Shown: piece after piece, positions 1 through 19,267 of the stretch
Position numbering within the stretch: position 1 is the first letter of the stretch
Layout of the letters: each line of letters begins with the position of its first letter
IMG/VR virus record: IMGVR_UViG_2703718769_000014
DNA from: a virus
Taxonomy: Duplodnaviria > Heunggongvirae > Uroviricota > Caudoviricetes
Strand: one strand, 5' to 3'
Length of the DNA stretch: 22,196 nt
Position numbers and translations under genes: made by a program
The notes under the pieces: model-generated
Told to the model about the DNA's origin: nothing
Seen by the model: the letters and a program-made list of their open reading frames with translations, nothing else
Database searches by the model: none

Positions 1-1284
1 TTACTTCTTCGCCTCTGCAACCACTTTACTACCCACGCCGCGGTTATTGTATTCCCACATGCGGTTGTAGTTAGTGTCATTCAGATTGCGCTGTATTTCG
101 TCGTTATCATCTACGCTGCCGGTATTACCCGCAAACGGACGATTAGAGATCACCGCATCGGCCCACGGTTTAGCCGTGTTAAAACCTTCGTTGATGGCGC
201 TATCACGGATCACCACCTGACCGTTGGTATTGGCATCAACATCCAGCGAGCGGCCCAGTTGCGCCACACCATCACCGAAAGCATTGAAACGGCTGTTTAC
301 GGCGAGGAAACCGTAGTAAATGTTGGACAGCGTAGCCGGTGCAAACACATACGCTTCTTGCTGAGTACGTGAGTTCACCACGCGGAATTCGGTGTTATCG
401 AACACCACTGCGCCGCGACCAGAAACGATATCCACATCCCCTTCAATGTAGCTGTTGGTCACCAGCGTACGCGGCTGACGATTTGTTTCCAGACGGTTCT
501 GCACACCGCTGTTGGTGACAAAGAAGGTGTTCTGACGACCGAGAATGTTAACGTTGTTAATCTGTACCTGGTCACCATCAGTACGCAGTGCCACCGCCGG
601 ATGGTTACCTGCATCTACGCTATCGCCCAGCGTGTTTTCGATGGTCAGATTTTGCAGTTGCAGGCCATTGTTTTGTGACCAGAAGACCGCAGAGCAGAGA
701 ACACCGATACTGTCGCTGCGTTTGCTCTGGCAGCTATCGTACATATACCACGCTGGTTTACCTGGCATATATTTGCCGCGCGGGTTGACGTCGTGACGCC
801 AGTCGGCAGGGCTCATGCCACCATCAAGGGAAAGCCCAATCTTCACATCAATCGGTTTTTCACCTGTACCGTACAGAGTAATTCCACCCGGAGCGGCAGG
901 GACATATACCGTTCCCTGATACTCACCAGGCATCACGGCAATATACTGGCGCTTGTTGGTACGCTTGATAATTGCCGCATCTACCGCCGCCTGAATCGTG
1001 GTATGCGTTACACCTTGAGTGCCCGCCGGGCCGACAACAAAGTCAGGTTGCGCAGGCAGGGTAATCGGGGAAGGATTCCACGCTGCAGCACCTGGTGTCA
1101 GGGATGCAAAATAGTGTTGAGCATCGAAATTCTGCGCTTCTTTTGCCGACAGAATCGGGCGAGAAGAGGTACCAGGCGCGGTTTGATCAGAAGGACGTTG
1201 ATCGGGCGGGGTTGAGCTACAGGCGGTCAGCGTCACGCCAAAAGCCAATGCCAGCGCCAGACGGGAAACTGAAAATGTGTTCAC
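1..1284 (-). CDS. ybhC: YbhC-like outer-membrane lipoprotein (pectinesterase-family fold), chromosomal gene flanking the lambda attachment site
   Basis: Complete 427-aa ORF, ATG at 1284 and stop at 1-3. N-terminal signal peptide with lipobox LTAC. Sequence recognised as E. coli YbhC, the gene adjacent to att-lambda. Confidence 0.88.
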   Translation of the reverse strand: MNTFSVSRLALALAFGVTLTACSSTPPDQRPSDQTAPGTSSRPILSAKEAQNFDAQHYFASLTPGAAAWNPSPITLPAQPDFVVGPAGTQGVTHTTIQAAVDAAIIKRTNKRQYIAVMPGEYQGTVYVPAAPGGITLYGTGEKPIDVKIGLSLDGGMSPADWRHDVNPRGKYMPGKPAWYMYDSCQSKRSDSIGVLCSAVFWSQNNGLQLQNLTIENTLGDSVDAGNHPAVALRTDGDQVQINNVNILGRQNTFFVTNSGVQNRLETNRQPRTLVTNSYIEGDVDIVSGRGAVVFDNTEFRVVNSRTQQEAYVFAPATLSNIYYGFLAVNSRFNAFGDGVAQLGRSLDVDANTNGQVVIRDSAINEGFNTAKPWADAVISNRPFAGNTGSVDDNDEIQRNLNDTNYNRMWEYNNRGVGSKVVAEAKK

Positions 1285-1308
1285 AGGTTGCTCCGGGCTA
1301 TGAAATAG

Positions 1309-1412
1309 AAAAATGAATCCGTTGAAGCCTGCTTTTTTATACTAAGTTGGCATTATAAAAAAGCATTGCTTATCAATTTGTTGCAACGAACAGGTCACTA
1401 TCAGTCAAAATA
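1309..1412. other. attL of a lambda-type prophage: bacterial B arm, 15-bp common core GCTTTTTTATACTAA (1323-1337), phage P' arm with arm-type Int and IHF binding region
   Basis: Exact lambda core followed by GTTGGCATTATAAAAAAGCATTGCTTATCAATTTGTTGCAACGAACAGGTCACTATCAGTCAAAATAAAATCATTATTTG, recalled as the lambda P' arm; bacterial-type sequence GAAGCCTGC on the ybhC side. Confidence 0.9.
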
Positions 1413-1418
1413 AAATCA

Positions 1419-2489
1419 TTATTTGATTTCAATTTTGTCCCACTCCCTGCCTCTGTCATCACGATACTGTGATGCCATGGTGTCCGACTTATGCCCGAGA
1501 AGATGTTGAGCAAATTTATCGCTTATCTGCTTCTCATAGAGTCTTGCAGACAAACTGCGCAACTCGTGAAAGGTTGGCGGATCCCCTTCGAAGGAGAGAC
1601 CTGATGCTTTTCGTGCGCGCATAAAATACCTTGATACTGTGCCGGATGAAAGCGGTTCACGACGAGTAGATGCAATTATGGTTTCTCCGCCAAGAATCTT
1701 TTTGCATTTATCAAGTGTTTCCTTCATTGATATCCCGAGAGCATCAACATGCAATGTTGTTGGGATGGCAATTTTTACGCCTGTTTTGCTTTGCTCGACA
1801 TAAAGATATCCATCTACGATATCAGACCACTTCATTTCGCATAAATCACCAACTCGCTGCCCGGTAACAACAGCCAGTTCCATTGCAAGTCTAAGCCAAC
1901 ATGGTGATGATTCTGCTGCTTGATAAATTTTCAGGTATTCGTCAGCCGTAAGTCTTGATCTCCTTACCTCTGATTTTGCAGCGCGAGTGGCTGCGACCGG
2001 GTTTGTTGTTATATGGCCTTCAGCCATAGCCTCTCGGAATGCATCGCTCAGTGTTGATCTGATTAACTTGGCTGATGCCGCCTTTCCCTCGTCTATGTAT
2101 CCATTGAGCATTGCCGCAATTTCTTTTGTGGTGATGTCTTCAAGTGGAGCATCAGGCAGACCCCTCCTTATTGCTTTAATTTTGCTCATGTAATTTATGA
2201 GTGTCTTCTGCTTGATTCCTCTGCTGGCCAGGATTTTTTCGTAGCGATCAAGCCATGAATGTAACGTAACGGAATTATCACTGTTGATTCTCGCTGTCAG
2301 AGGCTTGTGTTTGTGTCCTGAAAATAACTCAATGTTGGCCTGTATAGCTTCAGTGATTGCGATTCGCCTGTCTCGGCCTAATCCAAACTCTTTACCCGTC
2401 CTTGGGTCCCTGTAGCAGTAATATCCATTGTTTCTTATATAAAGGTTAGGGGGTAAATCCCGGCGCTCATGACTTCGCCTTCTTCCCAT
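1419..2489 (-). CDS. int: Lambda-type tyrosine integrase Int
   Basis: 356-aa ORF essentially matching recalled lambda Int (MGRRRSHERRDLPPNLYIRNNGYYCYRDPRTGKEF... ending ...DDRGREWDKIEIK); placed immediately inside attL, 3' end overlapping xis. Confidence 0.97.
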   Translation of the reverse strand: MGRRRSHERRDLPPNLYIRNNGYYCYRDPRTGKEFGLGRDRRIAITEAIQANIELFSGHKHKPLTARINSDNSVTLHSWLDRYEKILASRGIKQKTLINYMSKIKAIRRGLPDAPLEDITTKEIAAMLNGYIDEGKAASAKLIRSTLSDAFREAMAEGHITTNPVAATRAAKSEVRRSRLTADEYLKIYQAAESSPCWLRLAMELAVVTGQRVGDLCEMKWSDIVDGYLYVEQSKTGVKIAIPTTLHVDALGISMKETLDKCKKILGGETIIASTRREPLSSGTVSRYFMRARKASGLSFEGDPPTFHELRSLSARLYEKQISDKFAQHLLGHKSDTMASQYRDDRGREWDKIEIK

Positions 2490-2685
2490 TTCTGATCCTC
2501 TTCAAAAGGCTACCTGTTACTGGTCGATTTAAGTCAACCTTTACCGCTGATTCGTGGAACAGATATTCTCTTCCATCCTTAACCGGAGGAGGGAATATCC
2601 TGCATTCGCGCACCCATCGACGAACTGTTTCAAGGCTTCTTGGGCGTCGCTGGCGAGCGTTCCACTCCTGAAGTGTCAAGTACAT
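2467..2685 (-). CDS. xis: Lambda-type excisionase Xis
   Basis: 72-aa ORF (MYLTLQEWNARQRRPRSLETVRRWVRECRIFPPPVKDGREYLFHESAVKVDLNRP...) matching lambda Xis; overlaps the int start as in lambda. Confidence 0.95.
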   Translation of the reverse strand: MYLTLQEWNARQRRPRSLETVRRWVRECRIFPPPVKDGREYLFHESAVKVDLNRPVTGSLLKRIRNGKKAKS

Positions 2686-2710
2686 CGCAAAGTCTCCGCA
2701 ATTACACGCA

Positions 2711-2734
2711 AGAAAAAACCGCCATCAGGCGGCT
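2711..2734 (-). terminator. Rho-independent terminator for leftward transcription between the 55-aa ORF and xis
   Basis: On the minus strand: GC stem CCGCC/GGCGG with 4-nt loop followed by a T6 run (AAGCCGCCTGATGGCGGTTTTTTCTT). The stop codon of the upstream small ORF lies in the loop. Confidence 0.6.
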
Positions 2735-2892
2735 TGGTGTTCTTTCAGTTCTTCAATTCGAATATTGGTTATGTCTGCATGTGCTATCTGCGCCCATATC
2801 ATCCAGTGGTCATAGCAGTCATTGATGTTCTCTGCTTCGATAACTCTGTTGAATGGTTCTCCATTCCATTCACCTGTGACTCGGAAGTGCAT
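2725..2892 (-). CDS. Small hypothetical protein, 55 aa, exo-xis region (below the ORF-track length cutoff)
   Basis: ATG at 2892, translation MHFRVTGEWNGEPFNRVIEAENINDCYDHWMIWAQIAHADITNIRIEELKEHQAA, stop inside the terminator hairpin. Same strand and position as the small ORF next to xis in lambda. Confidence 0.5.
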   Translation of the reverse strand: MHFRVTGEWNGEPFNRVIEAENINDCYDHWMIWAQIAHADITNIRIEELKEHQAA

Positions 2893-2974
2893 TTATCATC
2901 TCCATAAAACAAAACTCGCCGTAGCGAGTTCAGATATAATTTCCACCAAAGGCAGTAGTTGCTGATGCTAAGAA

Positions 2975-3403
2975 TTATTCAATATCTATTCCTGTAATAT
3001 CTTTTATCTTTTTCCTTGCAAAGCCTTTTGCTAGTGATTTTGAAACACTTATTAGTGTACTAATTCCCTCATCCTTAAAGTTTGTTTTTATAGTTTGCCA
3101 GACCTCCTTTTGACGCAAGTCAGCAATAAAATCATGCCCTCTTGCTGTCAACCTCAGTGGTACTTCGATCCAACTATATCCAACACCTTCCCCTAACTCG
3201 TTGGACATTATATGACCGAACCCAGGTTTTCCATCAACCCTGACTATTAATTCGTAGTCGCATAATAATCGCATATGGAAAATAAAATTTTGGTCATATC
3301 TATTAAAGCCATTATCCTCTAGTTCACTAAGCATCGTGTCAGGGCCATGAGTTTTTTCGAATGCGATAAGTAGATCTTTTAGATATTGCTGGTCTAATTT
3401 CAT
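2975..3403 (-). CDS. Hypothetical cytoplasmic protein, 142 aa, exo-xis cargo, no family recognised
   Basis: Clean ORF with GGAGG Shine-Dalgarno 6-10 nt upstream of the ATG at 3403; AT-rich compared with the lambda-like flanks; no signal peptide. Confidence 0.6.
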   Translation of the reverse strand: MKLDQQYLKDLLIAFEKTHGPDTMLSELEDNGFNRYDQNFIFHMRLLCDYELIVRVDGKPGFGHIMSNELGEGVGYSWIEVPLRLTARGHDFIADLRQKEVWQTIKTNFKDEGISTLISVSKSLAKGFARKKIKDITGIDIE

Positions 3404-3650
3404 TGCCGCCTCCGTGACATGTCACAGAGATTTATATCATTAATTTTGTTTCGTGCCAGCCTTTGGTCACCCAGCATTGTGAGTCACCATTACACGGGCA
3501 TGAATTAACAGGAACTCTCTCGCCGCACTTACCGCAACGTTTTCTGCTGATCGATTTTATACGTCAGCGCACACGTGCATCATCCTGGCGGCTCAGTAAC
3601 GCGATGTACTCACCAAACTCGTAAGGCGCATGCCTGAAGCGGCGCGTGGC

Positions 3651-3770
3651 TCAGTTACGATCCAGCATTTCAATTTCCTGAGCATCAAGTACAAGCTCCA
3701 GCTTACGCATACCGGATGATGCTTGCTTGGCTCTCTGATCGACTTTGCGCTCTGCTGATGATTTAGCCAT
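3651..3770 (-). CDS. Possible small basic protein, 39 aa (MAKSSAERKVDQRAKQASSGMRKLELVLDAQEIEMLDRN); speculative
   Basis: ATG at 3770 with a weak AGGA upstream; charged, helical-looking composition; sits between the two cargo genes on the same strand. Confidence 0.25.
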   Translation of the reverse strand: MAKSSAERKVDQRAKQASSGMRKLELVLDAQEIEMLDRN

Positions 3771-3965
3771 TCTGCTTTTCCTGCATTAGGAGAAAGACAA
3801 TCATGGCGGCGCGGATACTTCCGGTATCTTTTTACTCGATATTACCCTTCAATGGCACATACAAGAAGAGAGCCATCAACAGGAGTGAGTGAGGAATCGA
3901 CAACCAGCAACGCTTAATTATCTATAGTGTCGTATTTGCTTCATAAAATATGGCGAATAACACAA

Positions 3966-3998
3966 AGCCCGCAGCAGCTCATTGTGCGGGCTTTTCTT
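3966..3998. terminator. Terminator-like hairpin: 8-bp stem AGCCCGCA/TGCGGGCT, 11-nt loop, then TTTTCTT
   Basis: Inverted repeat seen directly, lying 66 nt beyond the 3' end of the 204-aa gene. U-rich on the plus strand and partly T-rich on the minus strand, so possibly bidirectional. Confidence 0.5.
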
Positions 3999-4063
3999 AT
4001 ACATACTTCCTAGAGATAATTCTATGGAGGCATTAAATTAATACTGTCATTGGTAATATCATA

Positions 4064-4678
4064 TTATCTAAAAGTCTTTCCACTTTTAACGTCTAGGTAT
4101 ATTCTGTTCGACAACGTCATTCCTCCGCAATATGTGAAATAGATGTTTTTCCCCTTATTGCTTGATGCCATCCACCCTCCGATTTCCTTAAAGTCGCTTT
4201 CCGTGCAGACCCCTTCGTTTATTAACTTCCTAGCTGCCGAAGAAAACTCTTTTTTGTATATACGGTAGTCATCAGATCCTTTGATTAAAGTATCATCTCC
4301 GCTCGCATTTTCAGCAGGATCTGATGGCCTTTCACTGCTAAGATCACTAAGTTTAACCCATTCTGAAAACTTGCCATTGACGATTCCGTTTTTTCTTGTG
4401 CAGGATTTATTACCTTCTTTAATATATTCGCTTTCCCCTCCCACACATGAGGCTGAATATGGCTCAGTTATACGAACCCATTCACCTTTTTTTTCTAGAA
4501 AATCTACGCCTTCCCTGAAAAATAGTTTCCCAGCCACTCCACATTTACTTGAAGGGCAGGTATGTCTTTCCGTTCGATCAACAACAACCCAAAGTCTTGA
4601 TTCATTTTTTGCCATTGCCGATGGTATTTGAGATGAGACAATTAACGTAAGCCCTAAAATTAGTATTGATTTTTTCAT
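4064..4678 (-). CDS. Secreted or periplasmic cysteine-rich hypothetical protein, 204 aa, exo-xis cargo
   Basis: N-terminal signal peptide MKKSILILGLTLIVSSQIPSAMA (predicted cleavage after AMA), seven Cys in the mature part, AT-rich codon usage, no recognisable lambda homolog. Confidence 0.6.
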   Translation of the reverse strand: MKKSILILGLTLIVSSQIPSAMAKNESRLWVVVDRTERHTCPSSKCGVAGKLFFREGVDFLEKKGEWVRITEPYSASCVGGESEYIKEGNKSCTRKNGIVNGKFSEWVKLSDLSSERPSDPAENASGDDTLIKGSDDYRIYKKEFSSAARKLINEGVCTESDFKEIGGWMASSNKGKNIYFTYCGGMTLSNRIYLDVKSGKTFR

Positions 4679-4976
4679 TGTAATTTCCTTTTACTTTTTA
4701 CAAAGCGTTTAATCATGGCTGATTATCTTTAAGCGTAGTAACAGCCTTGTGCGAAACATGTTACCAAATCGCCATTTCAGTGTATCCGCAGTTAGGCTGC
4801 CACTTCAAGGATTCCTAATTACATGGTACGTAAGCGTAAAATCCCGTTGGTTGTCGGGTAATAACTCTGATCAAATCTCCCTTGTCTTTTGCTCTTACGT
4901 ATGCAGCTCTTGTGTATTCAACCCAGGCCTCCAGTTCAGCAATACGCTTACTTCCATCCGAGATAACACCTTCTAC

Positions 4977-5228
4977 TCACGCTGCTCGTTGAGTTTTGAT
5001 TTTTGCTGTCTCCAGCTCAACACGCAGTTTCCTCACCGTTAGCGCAATATCCTCGTTCTCCTGGTCGCGGCGTTTGATGTACTGCTGGTTTCTTTCCCGT
5101 TCATCCAGCAGTGTCAGCACAATCGATGGTGTTACCAGCTCATGGAAAAGGTCCGCGTCAAATCCCCAGTTGTCATGCATTGCCTGCTCTGCCGCTTCAC
5201 GCAGTGCCTGAGAGTGAATTACGCTCAC
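4977..5228 (-). CDS. Exo-xis region protein, 83 aa; the reading frame continues for 53 further codons past an in-frame TGA down to 4818
   Basis: ORF translationally coupled to the upstream TraR-like gene (ATGA overlap at 5225-5228). The frame stays open from 4976 down to a TAG at 4815-4817, see findings. Confidence 0.5.
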   Translation of the reverse strand: MSVIHSQALREAAEQAMHDNWGFDADLFHELVTPSIVLTLLDERERNQQYIKRRDQENEDIALTVRKLRVELETAKIKTQRAA

Positions 5229-5446
5229 TTCGAACCTCTCTGTTTACTGATAAGTTCCAGATCCTCCTGGCAACTTGCACAAGTCCGACAACCCTGAACG
5301 GCCAGGCGTCTTCGTTCATCTATCGGATCGCCACACTCACAACAATGAGTGGCAGATATAGCCTGGTGGTTCAGGCGGCGCATTTTTATTGCTGTGTTGC
5401 GCTGTAATTCTTCAATTTCTGATGCTGAATCAATGATGTCTGCCAT
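5225..5446 (-). CDS. TraR/DksA-family C4 zinc-finger protein, 73 aa (lambda orf73-like)
   Basis: Translation has CxxC-x17-CxxC (C35/C38 and C56/C59) in a 73-aa protein, the size and motif of the phage/plasmid TraR family; position matches orf73 of the lambda exo-xis region. Confidence 0.8.
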   Translation of the reverse strand: MADIIDSASEIEELQRNTAIKMRRLNHQAISATHCCECGDPIDERRRLAVQGCRTCASCQEDLELISKQRGSK

Positions 5447-5544
5447 CTTTCATTAATCCCTGAATTGTTGGTTAATACGCTTGAGGGTGAATGCGAATAA
5501 TAAAAAAGGAGCCTGTAGCTCCCTGATGATTTTGCTTTTCATGT

Positions 5545-5826
5545 TCACCGTTCCTTAAAAACGCCGTTTAACATGCCGATTGCTAGACTTAAATGAGTCG
5601 GTGTGAATCCCATCAGCGTTACCGTTTCGCGGTGCTTCTTCAGTACGCTACGGCAAATGTCATCGACGTTTTTATCCGGAAACTGCTGTCTGGCTTTTTT
5701 GATTTCAGAATTAGCCTGACGGGCAATGCTGCGAAGGGCGTTTTCCTGCTGAGGTGTCACTGAACAAGCCCCATGTCGGCAAGCATAAGCACACAGAATA
5801 TGAAGCCCGCTGCCAGAAAAATGCAT
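5545..5826 (-). CDS. Exo-xis region hypothetical protein (93 aa as listed; more likely 71 aa from the GTG at 5760)
   Basis: C-terminal 70 residues look like a real helical protein (TPQQENALRSIARQANSEIKKARQQF...); the N-terminal 22 codons overlap a hydrophobic 27-codon ORF in another frame, so the start is ambiguous. Confidence 0.5.
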   Translation of the reverse strand: MHFSGSGLHILCAYACRHGACSVTPQQENALRSIARQANSEIKKARQQFPDKNVDDICRSVLKKHRETVTLMGFTPTHLSLAIGMLNGVFKER

Positions 5827-5840
5827 TCAGTGGTTGTCAT
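5757..5840 (-). CDS. Possible 27-aa hydrophobic peptide (MTTTECIFLAAGFIFCVLMLADMGLVQ)
   Basis: ATG at 5840 overlaps the stop of the upstream 63-aa ORF (ATGA); its TGA overlaps an in-frame GTG of the downstream ORF (GTGA). Looks like a single transmembrane helix. Confidence 0.3.
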   Translation of the reverse strand: MTTTECIFLAAGFIFCVLMLADMGLVQ

Positions 5841-6028
5841 ACCTGGTCTCTCTCATCTGCTTCTGCTTTCGCCACCATCATTTCCAGTTTTTGTGAAAGG
5901 GATGTGGCTAACGTATGAAATTCTTCGTCTGTTTCTACTGGTATTGGCACAAACCTGATTCCAATTTGAGCAAGGCTATGTGCCATCTCGATACTCGTTC
6001 TTAACTCAACAGGAGATGCTTTGTGCAT
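5837..6028 (-). CDS. Exo-xis region small protein, 63 aa (orf63-like by size and position)
   Basis: 63-aa ORF overlapping the upstream 60-aa ORF by 28 nt, as I recall for lambda orf60a/orf63. Confidence 0.6.
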   Translation of the reverse strand: MHKASPVELRTSIEMAHSLAQIGIRFVPIPVETDEEFHTLATSLSQKLEMMVAKAEADERDQV

Positions 6029-6183
6029 ACAGCCCCTCGTTTATTATTTATCTCCTCAGCCAGCCGCTGTGCTTTCAGTGGATTTCGGATAACAGAAAGG
6101 CCGGGAAATACCCAGCCTCGCTTTGTAACGGAGTAGACGAAAGTGATTGCGCCTACCCGGATATTATCGTGAGGATGCGTCAT
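6001..6183 (-). CDS. Exo-xis region small protein, 60 aa (orf60a-like by size and position)
   Basis: ATG at 6183 gives a 60-aa product whose start overlaps the exo stop by 4 nt (ATGA); the ORF track lists the same frame from an upstream ATG (6189). Confidence 0.5.
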
Positions 6184-6821
6184 CGCCATTGCTCCCCAAA
6201 TACAAAACCAATTTCAGCCAGTGCCTCGTCCATTTTTTCGATGAACACCGGCACCATCTCGTCAAAACTCGCCATGTACTTTTCATCCCGCTCAACCACG
6301 ACATAATGCAGTCCTTCACGCTTCATACGCGGGTCATAGTTGGCAAAGTACCAGGCATCTTTTCGTGTCACCCACATGCTGTACTGCACCTGGGCCATGT
6401 AAGCCGACTTTATGGCCTCGAAACCACCGAGCCGGAACTTCATGAAATCCCGGGAGGTAAACGGGCATTTCAGCTCAAGGCCATTGCCGTCACTGCATAA
6501 ACCATCGGGAGAGCAGGCGGTGCGCATACTTTCGTCGCGATAGATGATCGGGGATTCAGTAACATTCACGCCGGAAGTGAATTCAAACAGGGTTCTGGCG
6601 TCGTTCTCGTACTGTTTTCCCCATGCCAGCGCCTTAGCATTAACTTCCGGAGCCACACCGGTGCAAACCTCAGCCAGCAGGGTGTGGAAGTAGGACATTT
6701 TCATGTCAGGCCACTTCTTTCCTGAGCGGGGCTTGGCTATCACGTTGTGAACTTCTGAAGCGGTGATGACGCCGAGCCGTAATTTGTGCCATGCATCATC
6801 CCCCTGTTCGACAGCTCTCAC
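6180..6821 (-). pseudogene. exo: Lambda exonuclease (Exo/RedX) lacking about 13 N-terminal codons; 5' end is a deletion junction
   Basis: Translation matches lambda Exo from [27 protein letters not shown] to the C-terminus GFVFGEQWR. There is no ATG; the frame opens at a GTG and an upstream stop. bet is absent and a ren fragment follows. Confidence 0.85.
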
Positions 6822-6841
6822 GTCGATCCCGGTAACGCAGA

Positions 6842-6973
6842 TCGGATGATTACCGGTTCGCTACCAGGGAAGAACGGGAAGGAAAGGTGAGCACGAATCT
6901 GATTTTCAAGGAGTGTCGCCAGAGTGCCGCGATGAAGCGGATGTTGGCATTTTATCGCGGCAATTTTCAATAG
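6842..6973 (+). pseudogene. ren: ren 3' fragment (C-terminal about 43 codons)
   Basis: Plus-strand frame reads ...[41 protein letters not shown], matching the recalled lambda Ren C-terminus ([30 protein letters not shown]...); no start codon or N-terminal part. Confidence 0.75.
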
Positions 6974-7010
6974 ACTATGTACATAAAAATATCATTTTTT
7001 TAATACATGT

Positions 7011-7217
7011 CTAATTATTGGACGAAATTGGTTTTTGCTTTGGTTTAGTTAGCCTAGCAATCAAGCCAGAGGCAATAATGATGATCCAAGCAATTTGATG
7101 CAATGCTACTCCAATATAAGAACCTTTATAGATAATAAAGGCATAGATCGCTAGAAACGAAATAAATATCCATAACGAAAGTTGATAAATTTTGGCGCGC
7201 ATATTTAATCCAATCAA
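7011..7217 (-). CDS. Small integral membrane protein (two predicted transmembrane helices), 62-68 aa
   Basis: Two hydrophobic helices (LSLWIFISFLAIYAFIIY and IAWIIIIASGLIA) and a basic C-terminal tail; AT-rich; divergent from the lipoprotein operon. Confidence 0.4.
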   Translation of the reverse strand: MIGLNMRAKIYQLSLWIFISFLAIYAFIIYKGSYIGVALHQIAWIIIIASGLIARLTKPKQKPISSNN

Positions 7218-7458
7218 TCAGAAAGACGAGTAATCATAGAGGTACTATCACCCGGGTAACTATTGCTATTATGAACGGATAGGATAGAGGCTTCAATAAC
7301 ATATGCATCAAGTATGATGGAATATGTAGGTGAAAATGACTTGTGTCAAATTTGTGGAAATGAGTACCATGTTTCTCTGAAATTGATGTCGTTAATGGCT
7401 AGTGATAGTGAACTTTTTTACTTTATAATTCCTTTGGTTATAACAATAAGGTAAATTT

Positions 7459-8019
7459 ATGAAGAAGATAATATTATTAGCCATGATTATTGGTTCTTTA
7501 ACAGGTTGCGCTAGTGTGCCACCATTGAATTTTTCAACACCTAACGTGGGAGTTAGCCAGAAAAAAATAGATGCTGAAATTAAGTCATTAACGGTATCAC
7601 TTGCTCGTCCAGATGAGCAGAAAGGGGATATCACTGCTGGTATGGAGGCTATAACTCCAATTTGGCGTGAATCTTTGCAGGAAGCACTCGACCGAATGAC
7701 TATTTTTCGTGATAGTTCACCAAATACGGTTAGCTTAAATGTTAAAGTGTTGGCTCTTGACGTTCCTGCTTTTGGTGTTTCAATGACAACTAAAGCAATT
7801 GCAAGGTATGAAATAATCAACCGTGCGAATGGTGATATTATATATACGCAGGATATTGAGTCTACCGGTACTGTTCCAGCCAGTTACGCATTCTACGGTA
7901 TTGTTCGAGCACGCGAATCTGTTAATCGCGCGGTGCAAAACAACATAACGCAGTTCTTGCAAGCATTAGAAAGTGTTGATCTTTCTCGTCCAATGTTTCC
8001 TGTTAGGGTAGCTAAATGA
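7459..8019 (+). CDS. Outer-membrane lipoprotein, 186 aa, unknown function
   Basis: Signal peptide with lipobox LTGC (Cys17, +2 residue Ala); Shine-Dalgarno-like AAGG upstream; stop overlaps the start of the next gene (ATGA at 8016-8019). Confidence 0.75.
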   Translation: MKKIILLAMIIGSLTGCASVPPLNFSTPNVGVSQKKIDAEIKSLTVSLARPDEQKGDITAGMEAITPIWRESLQEALDRMTIFRDSSPNTVSLNVKVLALDVPAFGVSMTTKAIARYEIINRANGDIIYTQDIESTGTVPASYAFYGIVRARESVNRAVQNNITQFLQALESVDLSRPMFPVRVAK

Positions 8020-8468
8020 AGCGATTATTCGTAATTGCTCCACTCTTAGTGTTGGTTGGATGCGCACAAAATATATCGCCAAATAGTTATTCTGTTGGCT
8101 CTGTGGGCATGGTTAATCGAACTATCGCTGGTACAGTTATTAGTGCTAGGGGGGTTGATATCAGTGGGACTTCCGCGTTAGGCGGGACTGCTGGGGCTGC
8201 CGTGGGGGCAACCGCTGGTTCTGCGCTTGGTGGGGGAGTTCGTTCTAATATCGTTGGTGCCGTTGGTGGTGCAGTCATTGGTGGTATTGCCGGGGCAGCA
8301 ATCGAATCTTCAGCAACAAAACAAACAGGCATGGAATATGTTGTCGAAACTGAGAATGGGAATTTAATGACCATTGTTCAAGGCAAAGATCCGTTATTTA
8401 CTCAAGGAAGTAAGGTCCTTGTTTTATACGGAAACCCTTCTCGCATAATAACAGACCCGCGTCACTAA
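8016..8468 (+). CDS. SlyB-like glycine-zipper outer-membrane lipoprotein, 150 aa
   Basis: Lipobox LVGC; long GxxxG zipper (GGTAGAAVGATAGSALGGG...GAVGGAVIGGIAGAAIE); C-terminal segment MEYVVETENGNLMTIVQGKD...VLVLYGNPSRI resembles the recalled SlyB C-terminus (ELEIRKDDGNTIMVVQKQG...VVLASNGSQV). Confidence 0.75.
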   Translation: MKRLFVIAPLLVLVGCAQNISPNSYSVGSVGMVNRTIAGTVISARGVDISGTSALGGTAGAAVGATAGSALGGGVRSNIVGAVGGAVIGGIAGAAIESSATKQTGMEYVVETENGNLMTIVQGKDPLFTQGSKVLVLYGNPSRIITDPRH

Positions 8469-8560
8469 CATACCTTTTGATTTTGTAAAATCAATTCGTA
8501 ATAATAAAGTCATCGGAGCTTGAACAACTCCGGTGACTTCTGCGCTAAACGGGGACGTTT

Positions 8561-8662
8561 ATGCGCACATACAATCCAAACTCTCTTCTCCCTTCACAGA
8601 TGCAGAAATGCACCTGCGATTTTTTGCATCCAGCGTCTGACCTCTGCGGAGGTGAAGCGTGA
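8561..8662 (+). CDS. Small ORF, 33 aa, ylcH-like by position and size
   Basis: ATG at 8561; stop overlaps the GTG start of the ybcN-like gene (GTGA); translation [33 protein letters not shown]. Confidence 0.4.
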
Positions 8663-9114
8663 ACCTACCACAAGATGGCATCAAACTGCATCGCGGTAAC
8701 TTCACCGCTATCGGCCAGCAGATCCAGCCTTATCTGGAGGACGGAAAATGCTTTCGCATGGTGCTTAAACCGTGGCGTGAGAAACGCAGTCTTTCCCAGA
8801 ATGCACTCAGCCACATGTGGTACAGCGAAATCAGTGAATACCTCATCAGCAGGGGGAAATCGTTCGCTACCGCAGCATGGGTAAAAGATGCTCTCAAACA
8901 CACATACCTCGGTTATGAAACCAAGGACCTGGTTGATGTCGTAACCGGCGAAATCACTACTATCCAGTCGTTACGCCATACCTCCGATCTTGATACCGGA
9001 GAGATGTATATCTTCCTGTGTAAGGTTGAAGCCTGGGCGGTGAATATTGGCTGCCACCTGACTATTCCGCAGAGCTGCGAGTTCCAGCAGCTCCGCGACA
9101 AACAGGAGGCGTAA
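8659..9114 (+). CDS. ybcN: NinB/YbcN-family protein, 151 aa
   Basis: GTG-start ORF of 151 aa; [19 protein letters not shown] motif resembles the NinB family; same position upstream of ninE/ybcO/rusA as ybcN in K-12 DLP12. Confidence 0.8.
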
Positions 9115-9284
9115 TGGCTACACCGCTTATTCGTGTCATGAACGGACACATCTACAGAGTACCAAATCGTCGTAAGCGTAAACCGGAGCTGAAGCCTTCC
9201 GAAATACCAACACTGCTCGGATATACCGCCAGCCTGGTTGATAAAAAATGGTTGCGACTGGCAGCAAGGAGGAGTCATGGCTGA
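9114..9284 (+). CDS. ninE: NinE-family small protein, 56 aa (below the ORF-track cutoff)
   Basis: ATG overlaps the ybcN stop (TAATG); translation [56 protein letters not shown]; stop overlaps the ybcO start. Confidence 0.7.
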   Translation: MATPLIRVMNGHIYRVPNRRKRKPELKPSEIPTLLGYTASLVDKKWLRLAARRSHG

Positions 9285-9567
9285 TTTGAGAAAAGCAGCG
9301 CGTGGTCGGGAATGCCAGGTAAGAATCCCTGGCGTATGTAATGGCAACCCTGAAACGTCTGTACTGGCACATATCCGGCTGACTGGATTGTGCGGCACCG
9401 GTACGAAACCGCCAGACCTGATTGCCACCATTGCATGTTCTGCCTGCCACGACGAAATCGACCGCCGCACACATTTTGTCGATGCTGCATATGCAAAAGA
9501 ATGCGCGCTGGAAGGTATGGCGAGAACACAGGTTATCTGGCTGAAAGAGGGGGTTATTAAGGCGTGA
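9277..9567 (+). CDS. ybcO: YbcO-family (DUF1364) Cys-rich putative nuclease, 96 aa
   Basis: Start [23 protein letters not shown]... at 9277 (the ORF track extends it upstream); Cys/His-rich; coupled to rusA. Confidence 0.82.
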
Positions 9568-9926
9568 ATACCTACAGCATCACATTACCCTGGCCTCCGA
9601 GCAATAATCGCTATTACCGCCATAATCGCGGGCGCACACACATCAGCGCAGAAGGGCAGGCATACCGCGATAACGTCACCCGAATCATTAAAAACGCAAT
9701 GCTGGATATCGGCCTGGCTATGCCAGTGAAAATCCGTATTGAGTGCCACATGCCGGATCGCCGTCGCCGTGACCTGGATAATCTGCAAAAAGCCGCTTTT
9801 GACGCACTCACCAAAGCAGGTTTCTGGCTGGATGATGCTCAGGTCGTTGATTACCGCGTTGTGAAGATGCCTGTTACCAAAGGTGGGAGGCTGGAACTGA
9901 CCATCACCGAAATGGGGAATGAATGA
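9564..9926 (+). CDS. rusA: RusA Holliday-junction resolvase
   Basis: 120-aa [29 protein letters not shown]...[31 protein letters not shown] matching recalled DLP12 RusA. Confidence 0.93.
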
Positions 9927-10063
9927 TGTTTGAGTTTAATATGGCAGAACTTCTTCGCCACCGCTGGATGCGCCTGCGCTTATATCGTTTCCCCAGTTCT
10001 GTTTTGACCGATTACCGAATACTGAGGAATTACGCCAAAACCCTGACAGGAGCAGGAGTATGA
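9923..10063 (+). CDS. ylcG: Small ORF, 46 aa, ylcG-like
   Basis: ATG overlapping the rusA stop (ATGA); translation [46 protein letters not shown]. Confidence 0.55.
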
Positions 10064-10148
10064 AGTCAGAGATAACAATCAACTAATACTGTTTTATTGA
10101 TTTTTGCTTGTAATTGGCGTTCTGGTCTGATTTTTGTGGAGTAAGTTG

Positions 10149-10532
10149 ATGCGTGATATTCAGATGGTTCTTGAGCGTTGGGGAGCGTGGGCGGCTAATA
10201 ATCATGAAGATGTGACCTGGTCGTCCATTGCCGCCGGTTTTAAGGGATTAATTACTTCAAAAGTAAAATCTCGCCCGCAATGTTGTGACGATGACGCGAT
10301 GATCATTTGCGGGTGCATGGCCCGTCTGAAAAAGAACAACAGCGATTTGCACGATTTATTAGTAGATTATTATGTAGTCGGTATGACATTCATGTCACTG
10401 GCAGGTAAGCATTGCTGCTCTGATGGTTATATCGGGAAAAGGTTACAGAAGGCTGAGGGTATAATTGAAGGGATGTTAATGGCATTAGATATCCGGTTAG
10501 AGATGGATATCGTTGTTAATAACTCTAATTAA
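10149..10532 (+). CDS. quuD: Late-gene antiterminator Q (QuuD-type)
   Basis: 127-aa product from the ATG at 10149 (the track starts at an upstream TTG); Cys-rich zinc-finger region [16 protein letters not shown]; sits at the end of the nin block. Confidence 0.85.
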
Positions 10533-10565
10533 TATGCCAATTGTTTACTAAAAATTATTAAAAAT

Positions 10566-10583
10566 GGGGCGTTGAGACGCCCC
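10566..10583 (-). terminator. Hairpin GGGGCG-TTGAGA-CGCCCC with a T-run on the minus strand; likely terminator for the convergent porin transcript
   Basis: Inverted repeat seen directly; on the minus strand it is followed by ATTTTTAATAATTTTT. Confidence 0.5.
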
Positions 10584-10671
10584 CAAAAATAAAGGGTAAT
10601 ATATAACAGAAGGTTTATATAGTTAGAAGCAAGGTTGTGCTCCTAAAGGAAGTGGCTTGAGGGAGCCACTT

Positions 10672-10710
10672 ATATGTTGGGGAGGCAAAGCCTCCCGCAA
10701 CATATCTTTT
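10672..10710 (+). terminator. Long stem-loop (about 15-bp stem, AAA loop) followed by CTTTT, between the convergent Q and porin genes
   Basis: ATATGTTGGGGAGGC-AAA-GCCTCCCGCAACATAT then CTTTT; a second hairpin AGTGGCT-TGAGGG-AGCCACT lies just upstream (10651-10670). Confidence 0.5.
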
Positions 10711-10720
10711 AGTAATCAAA

Positions 10721-11803
10721 TTAGAACTGGTAAACCATACCTACAGCAACGATATCATCGGTAGCAACGCCAGATGCTTTCGTGAAATCGCTCTTATCAA
10801 TCAGGTTGATTTTGTAATCAACAAAAGTGGACATATTTTTGTTGAAGTAATAGGTTGCACCTACATCAATATATTCAACCAGGTCCTGATCACCCCACGC
10901 ACCCAAGTCTTTTCCTTTAGATTGCAGGTAAGCAACGGACGGACGCAGACCGAAGTCGAACTGATATTGTGCAACTACTTCGAAGTTTTGTGCTTTGTTG
11001 GCAATATGGTTATTACCAAAAACAGTCATGTTCTGGGTTTCAGAATAGGTGGTAGCCAGATAGATGTTGTTCGCATCATATTTCAGACCAGCTGCCCATA
11101 CTTCAGCATTTTGACCAGATGCATTCAGGCTGTTGTTACCGTAGATAACCTGATTATTAGTGCGGTCAGATTTAGCATAGGTTGCACCTACACCGAATCC
11201 TTCATACTCATAAGTAGTGGAGAAACCGAAACCATCACCATTAGCTTCAGTTACGTCAGTGCGGTCATTTTTACCCTGATACTGAGCAGCAAAGTTCAGA
11301 CCATCAACCAGACCAAAGAAGTCATTGTTACGATAAGTTGCAACACCTGTGGTGCGACCAGTCATGAATACATCTGTTTGGGTCCAGGTATCGCCACCGA
11401 ATTCTGGCAGAACGTCGGTCCATGCACCAATATCGTATGCTACACCGTAGTTACGGCCATAATCGATGGAGCCGTAGTCACCGAATTTCAGGCCAGCGAA
11501 GGCAAGACGGGTTTTATCTTTGGAGGAACCTTGAGATTCAGCGCGGTTGCCTTTGAATTCATATTCCCACTGACCGAAACCAGTCAGTTGATCGTTGATT
11601 TGGGTTTCACCTTTGAAGCCAAGACGGGCATAAGTAGTATCACCATCATCTGCATCATTAGAGGAGAAGTAGTGCTTAGCATTAACTTTCCCGTACAGAT
11701 CCAGCTTGTTACTGTCTTTATTATAAATTTCAGCTGCCTGAGCAGACATCGCCATCAGTACTGATGCAGCTACAGCAGAAATTGCCACTGTTAATTTTTT
11801 CAT
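10721..11803 (-). CDS. nmpC: NmpC/OmpD-type general porin (OmpC/OmpF superfamily), prophage-encoded
   Basis: Signal peptide [40 protein letters not shown]-terminus, PEFGGD loop motif, C-terminal VGMVYQF beta-signal. The track ORF begins 20 codons upstream of the true start. Confidence 0.9.
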
Positions 11804-12228
11804 CGTGAGCCCTTTTTTTGAACTATTATTAAAAAATGATGTCACTGCGCGATAAATATTCATCTAATCAATGTGATTATTTCAAGATGTAAGTTTTGGT
11901 TTCTCATTTGATTTGTGAAGTAGATCTCTATTTTTATCTGAACTTTTTCTATCGAATCCTATTCATGGCTCTTGGCTGAATAAAAATAAATCTATTAGCC
12001 AATTTATATTAATGGCTGTTATTTATAAGCGCTCTATAATTTGAAGATTCAATTTAAACCAGCTAAAAATAACGCTGGAAATTATTTGTTGGTTATTTGT
12101 TGAGATTTGCTTATGTATTTGTAGTGGTGTTTTCAATACTCGGTAGCATTCTCGCAAATATCATTTAGTGGTTTACGTACGTAAAAAATTGGTTATGCTG
12201 TTAAGAGTGGTTACTTCGTCACACAGCT

Positions 12229-12262
12229 TAAACCCGCCGTCGAGCGGGTTTTTCCATTTTTT
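12229..12262 (+). terminator. Rho-independent terminator (tR'-like) upstream of the lysis cassette
   Basis: AACCCGC-CGTCGA-GCGGGTT followed by TTTTCCATTTTTT, about 130 nt upstream of the holin start. Confidence 0.7.
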
Positions 12263-12390
12263 GAGTCTCGATATTAGCTGATAACCCAATACCTGAGTTA
12301 TTCACTGACTCCGAGTCTGTTACGTTTCTGCTTTTTTGCGATACGTTGTATTCCCTCAATTTACACCCGCTTTGTCTGCGAGGTGGGGTT

Positions 12391-12606
12391 ATGAAATCCA
12401 TGGATAAGTTAACAACGGGTGTCGCCTATGGCACCTCAGCAGGTAGTGCCGGTTACTGGTTTTTACAGCTGCTCGATAAAGTCACGCCCTCACAGTGGGC
12501 AGCAATAGGTGTGCTGGGTAGCCTGGTATTTGGCCTGCTGACGTACCTGACAAACCTTTATTTCAAGATTAAAGAAGATAAGCGCAAGGCTGCGAGAGGT
12601 GAATAA
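12391..12606 (+). CDS. essD: Phage-21-type class II holin (pinholin S21), dual-start motif MKSM
   Basis: 71-aa product [26 protein letters not shown]... with two transmembrane segments and a charged C-terminus; the track ORF is extended upstream. Confidence 0.9.
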
Positions 12607-13103
12607 TGCCTCCATCATTACGAAAAGCCGTTGCTGCTGCTATTGGTGGCGGAGCAATTGCTATAGCATCAGTGTTAATTACTGGCCCAAGTGGTAACGA
12701 TGGTCTGGAAGGTGTCAGCTACGTACCATACAAAGATATCGTTGGCGTATGGACTGTATGTCACGGACACACCGGAAAAGACATCATGCTCGGTAAAACG
12801 TATACCAAAGCAGAATGCAAAGCACTCTTGAATAAAGACCTTGCCACTGTCGCCAGACAAATTAACCCGTACATCAAAGTCGATATACCGGAAACAACGC
12901 GCGGCGCTCTTTACTCATTCGTTTACAACGTGGGTGCTGGCAATTTCAGAACATCGACGCTTCTTCGCAAAATAAACCAGGGCGATATCAAAGGCGCATG
13001 TGATCAGCTACGTCGCTGGACATATGCTGGCGGTAAGCAATGGAAAGGTCTCATGACTCGTCGTGAGATTGAGCGTGAAATCTGTTTGTGGGGTCAGCAA
13101 TGA
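12606..13103 (+). CDS. rrrD: SAR endolysin (signal-anchor-release lysozyme, R21 type)
   Basis: 165-aa ORF with N-terminal SAR domain [27 protein letters not shown] followed by a lysozyme-like domain; start overlaps the holin stop (TAATG). Confidence 0.92.
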
Positions 13104-13561
13104 ACAGAGTAACCGCGATTATCTCCGCTCTGGTTATCTGCATCATCGTCTACCTGTCATGGGCTGTTAATCATTACCGTGATAACGCCATTACCTACAA
13201 AGCCCAGCGCGACAAAAATGCCAGAGAACTGAAGCTGGCGAACGCGGCAATTACTGACATGCAGATGCGTCAGCGTGATGTTGCTGCGCTCGATGCAAAA
13301 TACACGAAGGAGTTAGCTGATGCGAAAGCTGAAAATGATGCTCTGCGTGATGATGTTGCCGCTGGTCGTCGTCGGTTGCACATCAAAGCAGTCTGTCAGT
13401 CAGTGCGTGAAGCCACCACCGCCTCCGGCGTGGATAATGCAGCCTCCCCCCGACTGGCAGACACCGCTGAACGGGATTATTTCACCCTCAGAGAGAGGCT
13501 GATCACTATGCAAAAACAACTGGAAGGAACCCAGAAGTATATTAATGAGCAGTGCAGATAG
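13100..13561 (+). CDS. Rz: Rz inner-membrane spanin
   Basis: Start [29 protein letters not shown] overlapping the endolysin stop; N-terminal transmembrane segment and coiled-coil periplasmic domain; matches recalled lambda Rz. Confidence 0.88.
13320..13502 (+). CDS. Rz1: Rz1 outer-membrane lipoprotein spanin, embedded in the +1 frame of Rz
   Basis: Lipobox VVVGC and proline-rich mature part ([21 protein letters not shown]) entirely inside Rz. Confidence 0.8.
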
Positions 13562-13592
13562 AGTTGCCCATATCGATGGGCAACTCATGCAA

Positions 13593-13886
13593 TTATTGTG
13601 AGCAATACACACGCGCTTCCAGCGGAGTATAAATGCCTAAAGTAATAAAACCGAGCAATCCATTTACGAATGTTTGCTGGGTTTCTGTTTTAACAACATT
13701 TTCTGCGCCGCCACAAATTTTGGCTGCATCGACAGTTTTCTTCTGCCCAATTCCAGAAACGAAGAAATGATGGGTGATGGTTTCCTTTGGTGCTACTGCT
13801 GCCGGTTTGTTTTGAACAGTAAACGTCTGTTGAGCACATCCTGTAATAAGCAGGGCCAGCGCAGTAGCGAGTAGCATTTTTTTCAT
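13593..13886 (-). CDS. bor: Bor lipoprotein (serum-resistance lipoprotein of lambda)
   Basis: 97-aa ORF MKKMLLATALALLITGCAQQTFTVQNKPAAVAPKETITHHFFVSGIGQKKTVD... matching recalled lambda Bor; lipobox ITGC. Confidence 0.92.
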   Translation of the reverse strand: MKKMLLATALALLITGCAQQTFTVQNKPAAVAPKETITHHFFVSGIGQKKTVDAAKICGGAENVVKTETQQTFVNGLLGFITLGIYTPLEARVYCSQ

Positions 13887-14176
13887 GGTGTTATTCCCGA
13901 TGCTTTTTGAAGTTCGCAGAATCGTATGTGTAGAAAATTAAACAAACCCTAAACAATGAGTTGAAATTTCATATTGTTAATATTTATTAATGTATGTCAG
14001 GTGCGATGAATCGTCATTGTATTCCCGGATTAACTATGTCCACAGCCCTGACGGGGAACTTCTCTGCGGGAGTGTCCGGGAATAATTAAAAACGATGCAC
14101 ACAGGGTTTAGCGCGTACACGTATTGCATTATGCCAACGCCCCGGTGCTGACACGGAAGAAACCGGACGTTATGAT

Positions 14177-14710
14177 TTAGCGTGGAAAGATTTGTGTAGT
14201 GTTCTGAATGCTCTCAGTAAATAGTAATGAATTATCAAAGGTATAGTAATATCTTTTATGTTCATGGATATTTGTAACCCATCGGAAAACTCCTGCTTTA
14301 GCAAGATTTTCCCTGTATTGCTGAAATGTGATTTCTCTTGATTTCAACCTATCATAGGACGTTTCTATAAGATGCGTGTTTCTTGAGAATTTAACATTTA
14401 CAACCTTTTTAAGTCCTTTTATTAACACGGTGTTATCGTTTTCTAACACGATGTGAATATTATCTGTGGCTAGATAGTAAATATAATGTGAGACGTTGTG
14501 ACGTTTTAGTTCAGAATAAAACAATTCACAGTTTAAATCTTTTCGCACTTGATCGAATATTTCTTTAAAAATGGCAACCTGAGCCATTGGTAAAACCTTC
14601 CATGTGATACGAGGGCGCGTAGTTTGCATTATCGTTTTTATCGTTTCAATCTGGTCTGACCTCTTTGTGTTTTGTTGATGATTTATGTCAAATATTAGGA
14701 ATGTTTTCAC
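14177..14710 (-). CDS. Hypothetical protein of the lambda right arm downstream of bor, 177 aa
   Basis: ORF present at the corresponding position of the lambda right arm as I recall it; AT-rich; no family recognised. Confidence 0.55.
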
Positions 14711-14872
14711 TTAATAGTATTGGTTGCGTAACAAAGTGCGGTCCTGCTGGCATTCTGGAGGGAAATACAACCGACAGATGTATGTAAGGCCAACGTGCTC
14801 AAATCTTCATACAGAAAGATTTGAAGTAATATTTTAACCGCTAGATGAAGAGCAAGCGCATGGAGCGACAAA

Positions 14873-15079
14873 ATGAATAAAGAACAATCTGCTGATGATC
14901 CCTCCGTGGATCTGATTCGTGTAAAAAATATGCTTAATAGCACCATTTCTATGAGTTACCCTGATGTTGTAATTGCATGTATAGAACATAAGGTGTCTCT
15001 GGAAGCATTCAGAGCAATTGAGGCAGCGTTGGTGAAGCACGATAATAATATGAAGGATTATTCCCTGGTGGTTGACTGA
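14873..15079 (+). CDS. Small hypothetical protein, 68 aa (YbcW-like by size and position)
   Basis: 68-aa ORF with Shine-Dalgarno GGAG upstream; present at the same place in the lambda right arm and DLP12. Confidence 0.5.
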
Positions 15080-15243
15080 TCACCATAACTGCTAATCATT
15101 CAAACTATTTAGCCTGTGACAGAGCCAACACGCAGTCTGTCACTGTCAGGAAAGTGGTAAAACTGCAACTCAATTACTGCAATGCCCTCGTAATTAAGTG
15201 AATTTACAATATCGTCCTGTTCGGAGGGAAGAACGCGGGATGT

Positions 15244-15438
15244 TCATTCTTCATCACTTTTAATTGATGTATATGCTCTCTTTTCTGACGTTAGTCTCCG
15301 ACGGCAGGCTTCAATGACCCAGGCTGAGAAATTCCCGGACCCTTTTTGCTCAAGAGCGATGTTAATTTGTTCAATCATTTGGTTAGGAAAGCGGATGTTG
15401 CGGGTTGTTGTTCTGCGGGTTCTGTTCTTCGTTGACAT
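15244..15438 (-). CDS. Small basic DNA-binding-like protein, 64 aa (YlcI-like)
   Basis: N-terminal Arg/Thr-rich segment MSTKNRTRRTTTRNIRFPNQMIEQINIAL suggests a ribbon-helix-helix fold; size matches the DLP12 small ORF upstream of cos. Confidence 0.55.
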   Translation of the reverse strand: MSTKNRTRRTTTRNIRFPNQMIEQINIALEQKGSGNFSAWVIEACRRRLTSEKRAYTSIKSDEE

Positions 15439-15599
15439 GAGGTTGCCCCGTATTCAGTGTCGCTGATTTGTATTGTCTGAAGTTGTTTTTACGTTAAGTT
15501 GATGCAGATCAATTAATACGATACCTGCGTCATAATTGATTATTTGACGTGGTTTGATGGCGTAGATGCACGTTGTGACATGTAGATGATAATTATTAT

Positions 15600-17408: not shown

Positions 17409-17409
17409 G

Positions 17410-19175: not shown

Positions 19176-19267
19176 ATTCGTAATGATTACCTAAATACGT
19201 TATTCTTTTGTTCAAAAAGTGATTTTGCTATAGATAGGGAGTATGTTCTTGGATTAAGAATAAAAAT

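Follow-up and report, generated by a model that had tools for sequence, protein, structure and literature searches.

A mobile two-gene lipoprotein cassette with a predicted SlyB paralogue at the ren/ninB junction of a DLP12-like lambdoid prophage

We analyzed a stretch of 22,196 nucleotides (nt) of viral DNA (record IMGVR_UViG_2703718769_000014; hereafter the window), which contains a DLP12-like defective lambdoid prophage located at attB-lambda, downstream of ybhC. The subject of this study is an AT-rich, moron-like cargo insert of ~1.5 kb (6975..8475), delimited by GC content and phage alignments and situated between ren and ylcH/ninB, and in particular the two open reading frames (ORFs) on its plus strand. 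The first of them, p1 (7459-8019), encodes an outer-membrane (OM) lipoprotein of 186 amino acids (aa) with the lipobox LTG-C17; the second, p2 (8016-8468), encodes an OM lipoprotein of 150 aa with the lipobox LVG-C16. Reading of the sequence shows that the p1 stop and the p2 start overlap in the tetranucleotide ATGA. Both products start with a signal peptide and a lipobox and carry an alanine at position +2; p2 thus has no aspartate there, and its lipobox cysteine is invariant across 30 homologues. In E. coli the residue following the lipobox cysteine decides on sorting to the OM (the Lol rule), and because of the alanine we predict OM localization for both proteins. The view taken in a model-made annotation of the window from its letters alone (the first-pass annotation), that two translationally coupled OM lipoproteins are encoded here, is borne out. 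Each protein has hundreds of homologues, and comparison with the copies in Klebsiella, Pantoea, Salmonella and Edaphovirga gave nonsynonymous divergences (dN) of 0.11-0.29 with saturated synonymous divergence (dS), which points to strong purifying selection on the pair across genera. Judged by this conservation, p1 and p2 are real genes, far beyond chance.

The identity of p2 was addressed by several independent comparisons. A phmmer search against the sequences in the PDB had one real match, E. coli SlyB (7ojf; E 1.3e-14), whose residues 3-155 aligned with residues 2-149 of p2. BLASTP against K-12 SlyB gave 33% identity from end to end, and hhalign of p2 with SlyB a probability of 98.7% (E 3e-16). 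The Pfam model PF05433 matched residues 55-97 at E 3e-4 with 21.1 bits, slightly below its cut-off of 24.2, and in PHROGs p2 belongs to phrog_13877, a family of unknown function. The AlphaFold2 model consists of an N-terminal beta-hairpin, two helices (residues 53-70 and 75-100) and a C-terminal beta domain; when it was compared with the PDB by Foldseek, the SlyB13-BamA structure was the only significant match (E 2.3e-9, template-modelling score 0.60-0.64). In the alignment derived from the loci described below, glycines 56, 60, 64, 68, 72, 81, 85 and 89, which are carried by the two helices, are invariant. Three features of the SlyB family are thus found in p2, namely homology over the full length, an OM lipoprotein signal and a two-helix glycine zipper together with a beta domain. 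On sequence and model together we regard p2 as a full-length SlyB paralogue with a predicted two-helix glycine zipper at about residues 53-100. The likeness to SlyB had been noticed in the first-pass annotation and stands, although it is not restricted to the C-terminus, as was then supposed, but spans the entire protein. Members of the p2 subfamily from alpha-, beta- and gamma-Proteobacteria share 46-77% identity with p2, compared with 33% for SlyB of the host, so that p2 is no recent copy of the host gene.

The glycine zipper of SlyB, made of two helices, inserts into the OM, and SlyB oligomerizes into rings. It was reportedly in 2024 that the protein was first recognized as a builder of protective lipid nanodomains around OM proteins. 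More recent work describes rings that surround lipid and OM proteins and guard the OM under stress, and connects these ring nanodomains with tolerance of OM stress and with polymyxin resistance (10.64898/2025.12.22.696046; 10.64898/2026.06.08.730324). Three phospholipid-binding residues and an interface binding lipopolysaccharide are mentioned as well, without residue names (10.64898/2026.06.08.730324), and highly expressed SlyB genes have also been described on other mobile elements (10.1101/2025.09.30.679422).

Next, we investigated how regularly p1 and p2 occur together. In a survey of GTDB with one genome per species we collected 55 loci containing a relative of p1, and at 50 of these a relative of p2 lies directly downstream, either with an overlap or separated by no more than a few tens of bases. 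The hosts include Klebsiella oxytoca, Serratia and Edaphovirga as well as Xanthomonas, Stenotrophomonas, Luteimonas and Solilutibacter (Lysobacter) pythonis; further hosts are Bordetella, Comamonadaceae, Massilia, Paraburkholderia and several alphaproteobacterial metagenome-assembled genomes. An ATGA or 4-nt overlap of the two genes recurs in Klebsiella, Xanthomonas and Stenotrophomonas. Apart from p1 and p2 themselves no gene family was common to over 10 loci, and such clusters were mostly artefacts of ORF calling in high-GC DNA. Even among 14 Stenotrophomonas genomes at species level the upstream and downstream flanks of the pair vary independently of each other. For p1 and p2 the distance matrices correlate closely (r = 0.92, Mantel 0/2000), which shows co-inheritance but is no proof of contact. 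Taken together, these comparisons argue that p1-p2 is a conserved, horizontally mobile two-gene cassette. The co-occurrence, which the first-pass annotation had proposed to check, is accordingly found to be much wider than that annotation supposed, both at the genome loci and in the 32 of 41 viral contigs described below.

Many of these copies reside in chromosomal settings: in K. oxytoca the pair lies between umuDC-SRAP and csp genes, in Xanthomonas nasturtii it adjoins pgaABCD, and in Stenotrophomonas it is located between a TonB-dependent receptor operon and ispH-lspA-ileS. That the pair also occurs in such non-phage settings argues for a function independent of phages. Elsewhere the neighbours are mobile, as in Bordetella, where the pair borders toxin-antitoxin genes and the remnant of a phage N-antiterminator, and in Edaphovirga, where it borders a TumE module and a P4-like island. 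According to the first-pass annotation, its proposal of an envelope system would have to be given up if both proteins fell into a well-characterized housekeeping family with a chromosomal context. Chromosomal settings are indeed common, but a characterized housekeeping family did not emerge. Within E. coli the pair is present in 280 of 5,426 complete genomes (5%), among them that of the enteroaggregative E. coli (EAEC) strain 042. The pair is chromosomal in every one of these genomes, and no copy falls below 99% identity, which suggests a single recent acquisition by E. coli that spread with the present prophage lineage. The plasmids of PLSDB contain no copy of p1; the search gave just three remote, partial matches (26-28% identity). 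In Photorhabdus p1 stands alone (L043 ~6513-7049 and L047 ~5962-6321), and at both of these loci it is followed by repeats that translate as 'VHCRTGSLE' every ~20 codons and look similar to a CRISPR array.

In IMG/VR we found 41 viral contigs with p1, of which 32 contain the pair and 9 a diverged p1 alone, while among deposited phage genomes only PhiR30_1 carries the pair. The insertion sites differ widely. In Salmonella prophages the pair lies in the nin region amid ParE, PemK, YoeB and HigB modules, in Pantoea between the tape measure gene and gpM, and in prophages of high GC content adjacent to the CI repressor (L100, L109), between the large terminase and portal genes (L102) or near an O-like replication gene (L104). 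Where p1 is solitary, the PPLNF motif is still present. In L111 such a gene is flanked by those of the tail chaperone and the tape measure, in L112 by gpK and gpI; in L118 it lies with a further lipoprotein gene immediately ahead of the tape measure, and in L110 it adjoins an antirepressor. Temperate phages have repeatedly captured the pair or p1, at differing sites. A role of the pair in lysis, similar to that of spanins, was considered and rejected, since the pair was never located in a lysis cassette and its sites vary.

Some of these viral loci contain additional genes of interest. Around the pair, the early-right region of the Salmonella enterica prophages L069-L071 (~5.9-13.6 kb in L069) harbours several toxin-antitoxin modules (YdaS/YdaT, PaaA2-ParE, MazE-PemK, Phd-YoeB and HigB-HTH) and resembles a crowded hotspot for accessory or defence genes. 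In L100 (6005-6496, minus strand) and L109 (6008-6496, minus strand) another predicted lipoprotein of 163-164 aa is encoded divergently and immediately upstream, between the pair and a DNA methyltransferase gene; the L100 copy, the only one scanned, had no match in PHROGs. The second, unrelated lipoprotein gene that follows solitary p1 in L118 (7646-8149; 167 aa; phrog_8179, unknown function) directly precedes the tape-measure gene; its product may be a replacement partner for p2.

For p1 the classification is less straightforward. Searches of p1 and 25 relatives against Pfam returned nothing beyond the lipid-attachment motif, and none of these 26 family members matched PF03923 (YajG) at E<=1. 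The NCBIfam model NF008637/PRK11627 matched p1 in the signal peptide only (E 0.17, 11.4 bits compared with a cut-off of 242 bits), and an hhalign comparison with E. coli YajG was weak as well (probability 75% at E 2.5e-5), its 120 columns taking in the signal peptide. Some newer RefSeq records carry the name 'YajG family lipoprotein', assigned by the Prokaryotic Genome Annotation Pipeline (PGAP); because the profile match is weak and partly due to the signal peptide, we keep p1 out of the YajG family. Its PHROGs family, phrog_12521, is of unknown function. In a profile search of 1.84 billion representative sequences 930 clusters matched at E<=1e-3, 95 of them even at E<=1e-30. With some 930 clusters, formed at 50% identity, p1 defines a family for which there is no Pfam model. 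Homologues of p1 are widely named 'UDP-N-acetylglucosamine acyltransferase' in NCBI, in UniRef and in the PhiR30_1 record. For a lipoprotein of 186 aa this name is plainly wrong, no search made here supports it, and it appears to be a propagated error.

The sequence of p1 gave only noise when it was searched against the PDB. Its AlphaFold2 model (predicted local distance difference test score, pLDDT, 82.6) has the topology beta-alpha-beta-beta-beta-alpha, and its alpha/beta domain shares the fold of the LptE/PqiC (DUF330)/PelC/CsgG-N type; a search of the viral folds of BFVD was uninformative, with a weak CsgG match and then Rad52/ERF noise. Solved members of this class of folds plug or cap OM assemblies, often as rings. 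Near p1 we found none of the cognate partners LptD, PqiB or PelB, and at the loci compared p2 is the sole conserved neighbour. The lipid anchor is linked to the fold by a tether with the motif PPLNFSxPNVG (residues 21-31), which is modelled at low confidence; its mean column identity is 0.83, compared with 0.77 for the fold. Being unstructured and yet conserved like the domain, the tether behaves as expected of a partner-binding peptide.

The window was compared with PhiR30_1 (PV340558), an intact, plaque-forming phage. Relative to this phage the window prophage has lost bet through P: at ~6838/6840 the alignment skips from PhiR30_1 position 3703 to 10532, which joins exo to the last part of ren. 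The backbone flanking the insert consists on the left of the C-terminal remnant of ren (6851..6973, plus strand) and on the right of a ylcH-like ORF of 33 aa (8561-8662, plus strand) and ninB/ybcN (8659-9114, plus strand). These annotations are those of RefSeq for the locus L001, which is 99.99% identical across window positions 1-16591 and where the prophage is flanked by ybhC and ybhB/bioA; for the two genes on the right they are complemented by comparison with K-12 DLP12. The insert starts ~135 bp past the deletion junction, after the ren stop codon at 6973, and alignment to other lambdoid phages restarts only at position 8476, just upstream of ylcH/ninB. Its GC content is 33-45%, compared with 50-53% in the flanks. 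It accordingly shows two traits of a phage moron, extra DNA between backbone genes and a deviating base composition. The whole insert is also present in the undeleted PhiR30_1, between complete ren and ninB. We conclude from this that the insert is phage cargo older than the deletion, that its nearness to the junction is coincidental, and that the exo-ren deletion has to be rejected as its origin; the deletion junction described in the first-pass annotation is thus real, but not the connection with the insert. The interval from renD to ylcH-ybcN of K-12 DLP12 is occupied by other cargo, emrE-ylcJ-ybcK-ybcL-ybcM, as the first-pass annotation had stated in essence for this position, which makes the ren/ninB junction a variable cargo site. 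The earlier proposal of non-lambda cargo at such a site agrees with the lambdoid alignments, with PhiR30_1 and with DLP12.

A third ORF within the insert, p3 (7011-7217, minus strand), was taken from the ORF list only. It would encode a hydrophobic protein of 68 aa from a TTG start or 63 aa from the first ATG, and it had been proposed as a divergently transcribed small membrane protein belonging to the system. We found no match to p3 in Pfam, NCBIfam, PHROG or PADLOC, and among 5.8 billion proteins no homologue outside E. coli, where the copies are at least 86% identical. None of the loci outside E. coli that bear the pair contains it, whether in genomes or in viral contigs, and it is not annotated in the RefSeq record L001. 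As an orphan confined to E. coli it was rejected as a component of the system. A coding status of p3 is unsupported, and we regard it as a mechanical ORF in an AT-rich spacer.

Regarding transcription, a consensus scan yielded a candidate sigma-70 promoter, GTGATA-16-TATAAT (7402..7429, plus strand; 10 of 12 positions), ~30 nt upstream of p1. Starting 39 nt after the p2 stop codon there is a strong stem-loop with a 12-bp stem and a weak U-tract (8507..8539, plus strand), which could serve as a terminator of the pair; the RNA fold of 8466-8565 has an energy of -31.2 kcal/mol (z = -5.3). This hairpin belongs to the phage backbone and is common to phages without the insert. The pair is presumably expressed in the lysogen. 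Since it is oriented like the early-right operon, it should be transcribed during lytic growth too.

The same prophage carries further envelope genes. An intact ompC/nmpC-like porin gene is located just after the Q antiterminator gene (10721-11803, minus strand, annotated in RefSeq for L001), and the equivalent nmpC of K-12 DLP12 is interrupted by IS5. The gene bor lies at 13593-13886 (minus strand). At 13939-13955 (minus strand), 53-69 nt upstream of the bor start, we found the PhoP box TGTTTAGGGTTTGTTTA with 0 mismatches, the only perfect match in the window; it fits the PhoP control of borD described for K-12. With the porin, bor and the two lipoproteins, four envelope genes are thus united in one prophage. 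Further downstream, positions 16592-20371 are absent from the otherwise identical locus L001. In this segment a truncated large-terminase ORF leads into an ORF for a tail-fibre C-terminus (17410-18594) and a gene for tail-fibre assembly (18594-19175), after which very AT-rich DNA follows (28-33% GC, 19200-20000); an Rfam match to IS009 was found at 18937-19135.

For the function of the cassette we tentatively favour the following explanation. A PhiR30_1-like lambdoid phage would have acquired the insert, as a mobile two-gene cassette, between ren and ninB. Its two products would join in one heteromeric OM complex, in which p2 may form a ring or nanodomain of the SlyB type, while p1, held by its PPLNFSxPNVG linker, may nucleate the ring, cap it or supply its target. 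Made in the lysogen, such a complex would help the envelope to withstand antimicrobial peptides, serum, bile or a loss of lipid asymmetry. Envelope robustness, as a lysogenic conversion of the Bor type, is the output that we prefer, at a probability somewhat short of even, because no other role has been demonstrated for the SlyB family and because so many copies are found outside phages. An envelope benefit of this kind would explain why free-living Proteobacteria and temperate phages alike retain the cassette. Several observations weigh against this explanation. The p2 model is of moderate confidence only (pLDDT 66.9), the mirror-tree correlation of p1 and p2 would arise from co-inheritance alone, and no p1-p2 fusion was found among the seven longest profile-search matches inspected, whose extra domains were unrelated. 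Promoter-like sites in the region are no more numerous than in shuffled sequences, so that expression in the lysogen is putative. No PhoP box was found upstream of p1 (7218-7458, at up to 3 mismatches), so that the regulation of canonical slyB is inapplicable to the pair. Finally, some phage tail operons contain a p1-like gene by itself, from which it follows that p1 can act without a SlyB-like partner, and this placement fits exclusion of superinfecting phages at least equally well.

Such exclusion could work by caging of a receptor: p1 would dock on an OM protein used as phage receptor, from its periplasmic side, or thread into it, the p2 ring would enclose the complex, and adsorption or DNA ejection would be blocked. 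This would be similar to LptE, which plugs LptD, or to Llp, which binds FhuA. We consider this possible, though less probable than a tougher envelope. The pair or p1 alone occupies classical exclusion or conversion moron sites in many unrelated temperate phages, whether next to CI (L100, L109), in the Salmonella nin region with its four toxin-antitoxin modules, in a Pantoea phage between tape measure and gpM, in L102 between terminase and portal or, for solitary p1, in the tail operons of L111, L112 and L118, and the LptE-like 'plug' fold of p1 would suit this task. However, PADLOC had no match for p1, p2 or p3, no similarity to Cor, Llp or SieA was found in PHROGs, many copies are chromosomal and have no phage genes in their vicinity, and no target OM protein is identifiable; an identity of 55-85% across proteobacterial classes would also be unusual for an arms race with phage receptor-binding proteins. 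A more elaborate version, in which the PPLNF tether of p1 recognizes a specific OM beta-barrel from the periplasm, p2 polymerizes into a private lipid nanodomain around it, the cassette is passed on by temperate phages of several bacterial orders because it protects their lysogens, and solitary p1 is a stripped-down form that uses SlyB of the host, is in our opinion rather doubtful. Nothing computed here separates envelope robustness from receptor masking. Instead, p1 could be a PqiC/PelC-like docking ring in the OM for a lipid or polysaccharide pathway of the host, with p2 as a mere anchor, but no conserved neighbour is a transporter gene; p1 and p2 alone travel together, their flanks differ even among Stenotrophomonas species, and p1 matches no Pfam model of the PqiC/PelC-type families, which leaves this role improbable. 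Most improbable of all is that the genes are neutral passengers, intact merely because the prophage is young and of no effect on phage or E. coli. All 280 E. coli copies are nearly identical, so that decay has had no time to set in within this species, and the window prophage is already heavily deleted; against this stand the purifying selection on the pair across genera, the preserved gene order and coupling and the independent capture at many phage sites.

A literature search by RefSeq accession, PHROG identifier and phage name gave no mention of p1, p2 or PhiR30_1. While the SlyB family itself is already known, a SlyB paralogue with a partner lipoprotein, spread by temperate phages, is new. 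A SlyB paralogue with a dedicated partner of the LptE fold would amount to a natural two-part SlyB machine and would offer a handle on how the rings are nucleated or targeted. The repeated capture of the cassette or of its first gene by temperate phages of hosts of the Enterobacterales and Xanthomonadales type suggests a benefit for the lysogen, which could be a tougher envelope or a new way of hiding receptors. A tougher envelope, if true, would bear on the tolerance of serum, bile and polymyxin in E. coli strains carrying the pair, including EAEC 042.

Compared with known systems, p2 equals SlyB/PCP of E. coli (PhoPQ-induced; PDB 7ojf/7ojg) in length and architecture. Its subfamily, however, is separate and tightly conserved and is almost always encoded directly after the gene of the partner lipoprotein; p2 is mobile and phage-borne and has no PhoP box, whereas canonical slyB is solitary and adjoins slyA. 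YajG (E. coli b0434, PF03923) is, like p1, an OM lipoprotein of about 190 aa, but yajG lies beside ampG, and no gene for a SlyB-like protein adjoins it. From the LptE/PqiC/PelC/CsgG-N class p1 differs by an identity of only 6-15% and by belonging to none of the respective Pfam families; furthermore, no member of this class is paired with a SlyB-like protein, and only p1 has the conserved PPLNF tether. TraT, the decameric ring of F plasmid surface exclusion and serum resistance (PDB 9fs5/9e2v), combines in one polypeptide what is distributed here over two proteins, an alpha/beta domain and a membrane hairpin; it has no sequence relationship to the pair, and the resemblance is suggestive only. 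Comparable in genomic terms are the morons Bor and Lom of lambda, Cor of phi80/N15, Llp of T5 and HK97 gp15, which are likewise small AT-rich additions to the phage backbone that encode envelope proteins at similar sites, and the window prophage itself bears bor and a porin gene as well. The p1-p2 cassette differs from these in being unrelated in sequence and PHROG family, in consisting of two subunits and in being distributed far more widely outside phages than Cor or Llp.

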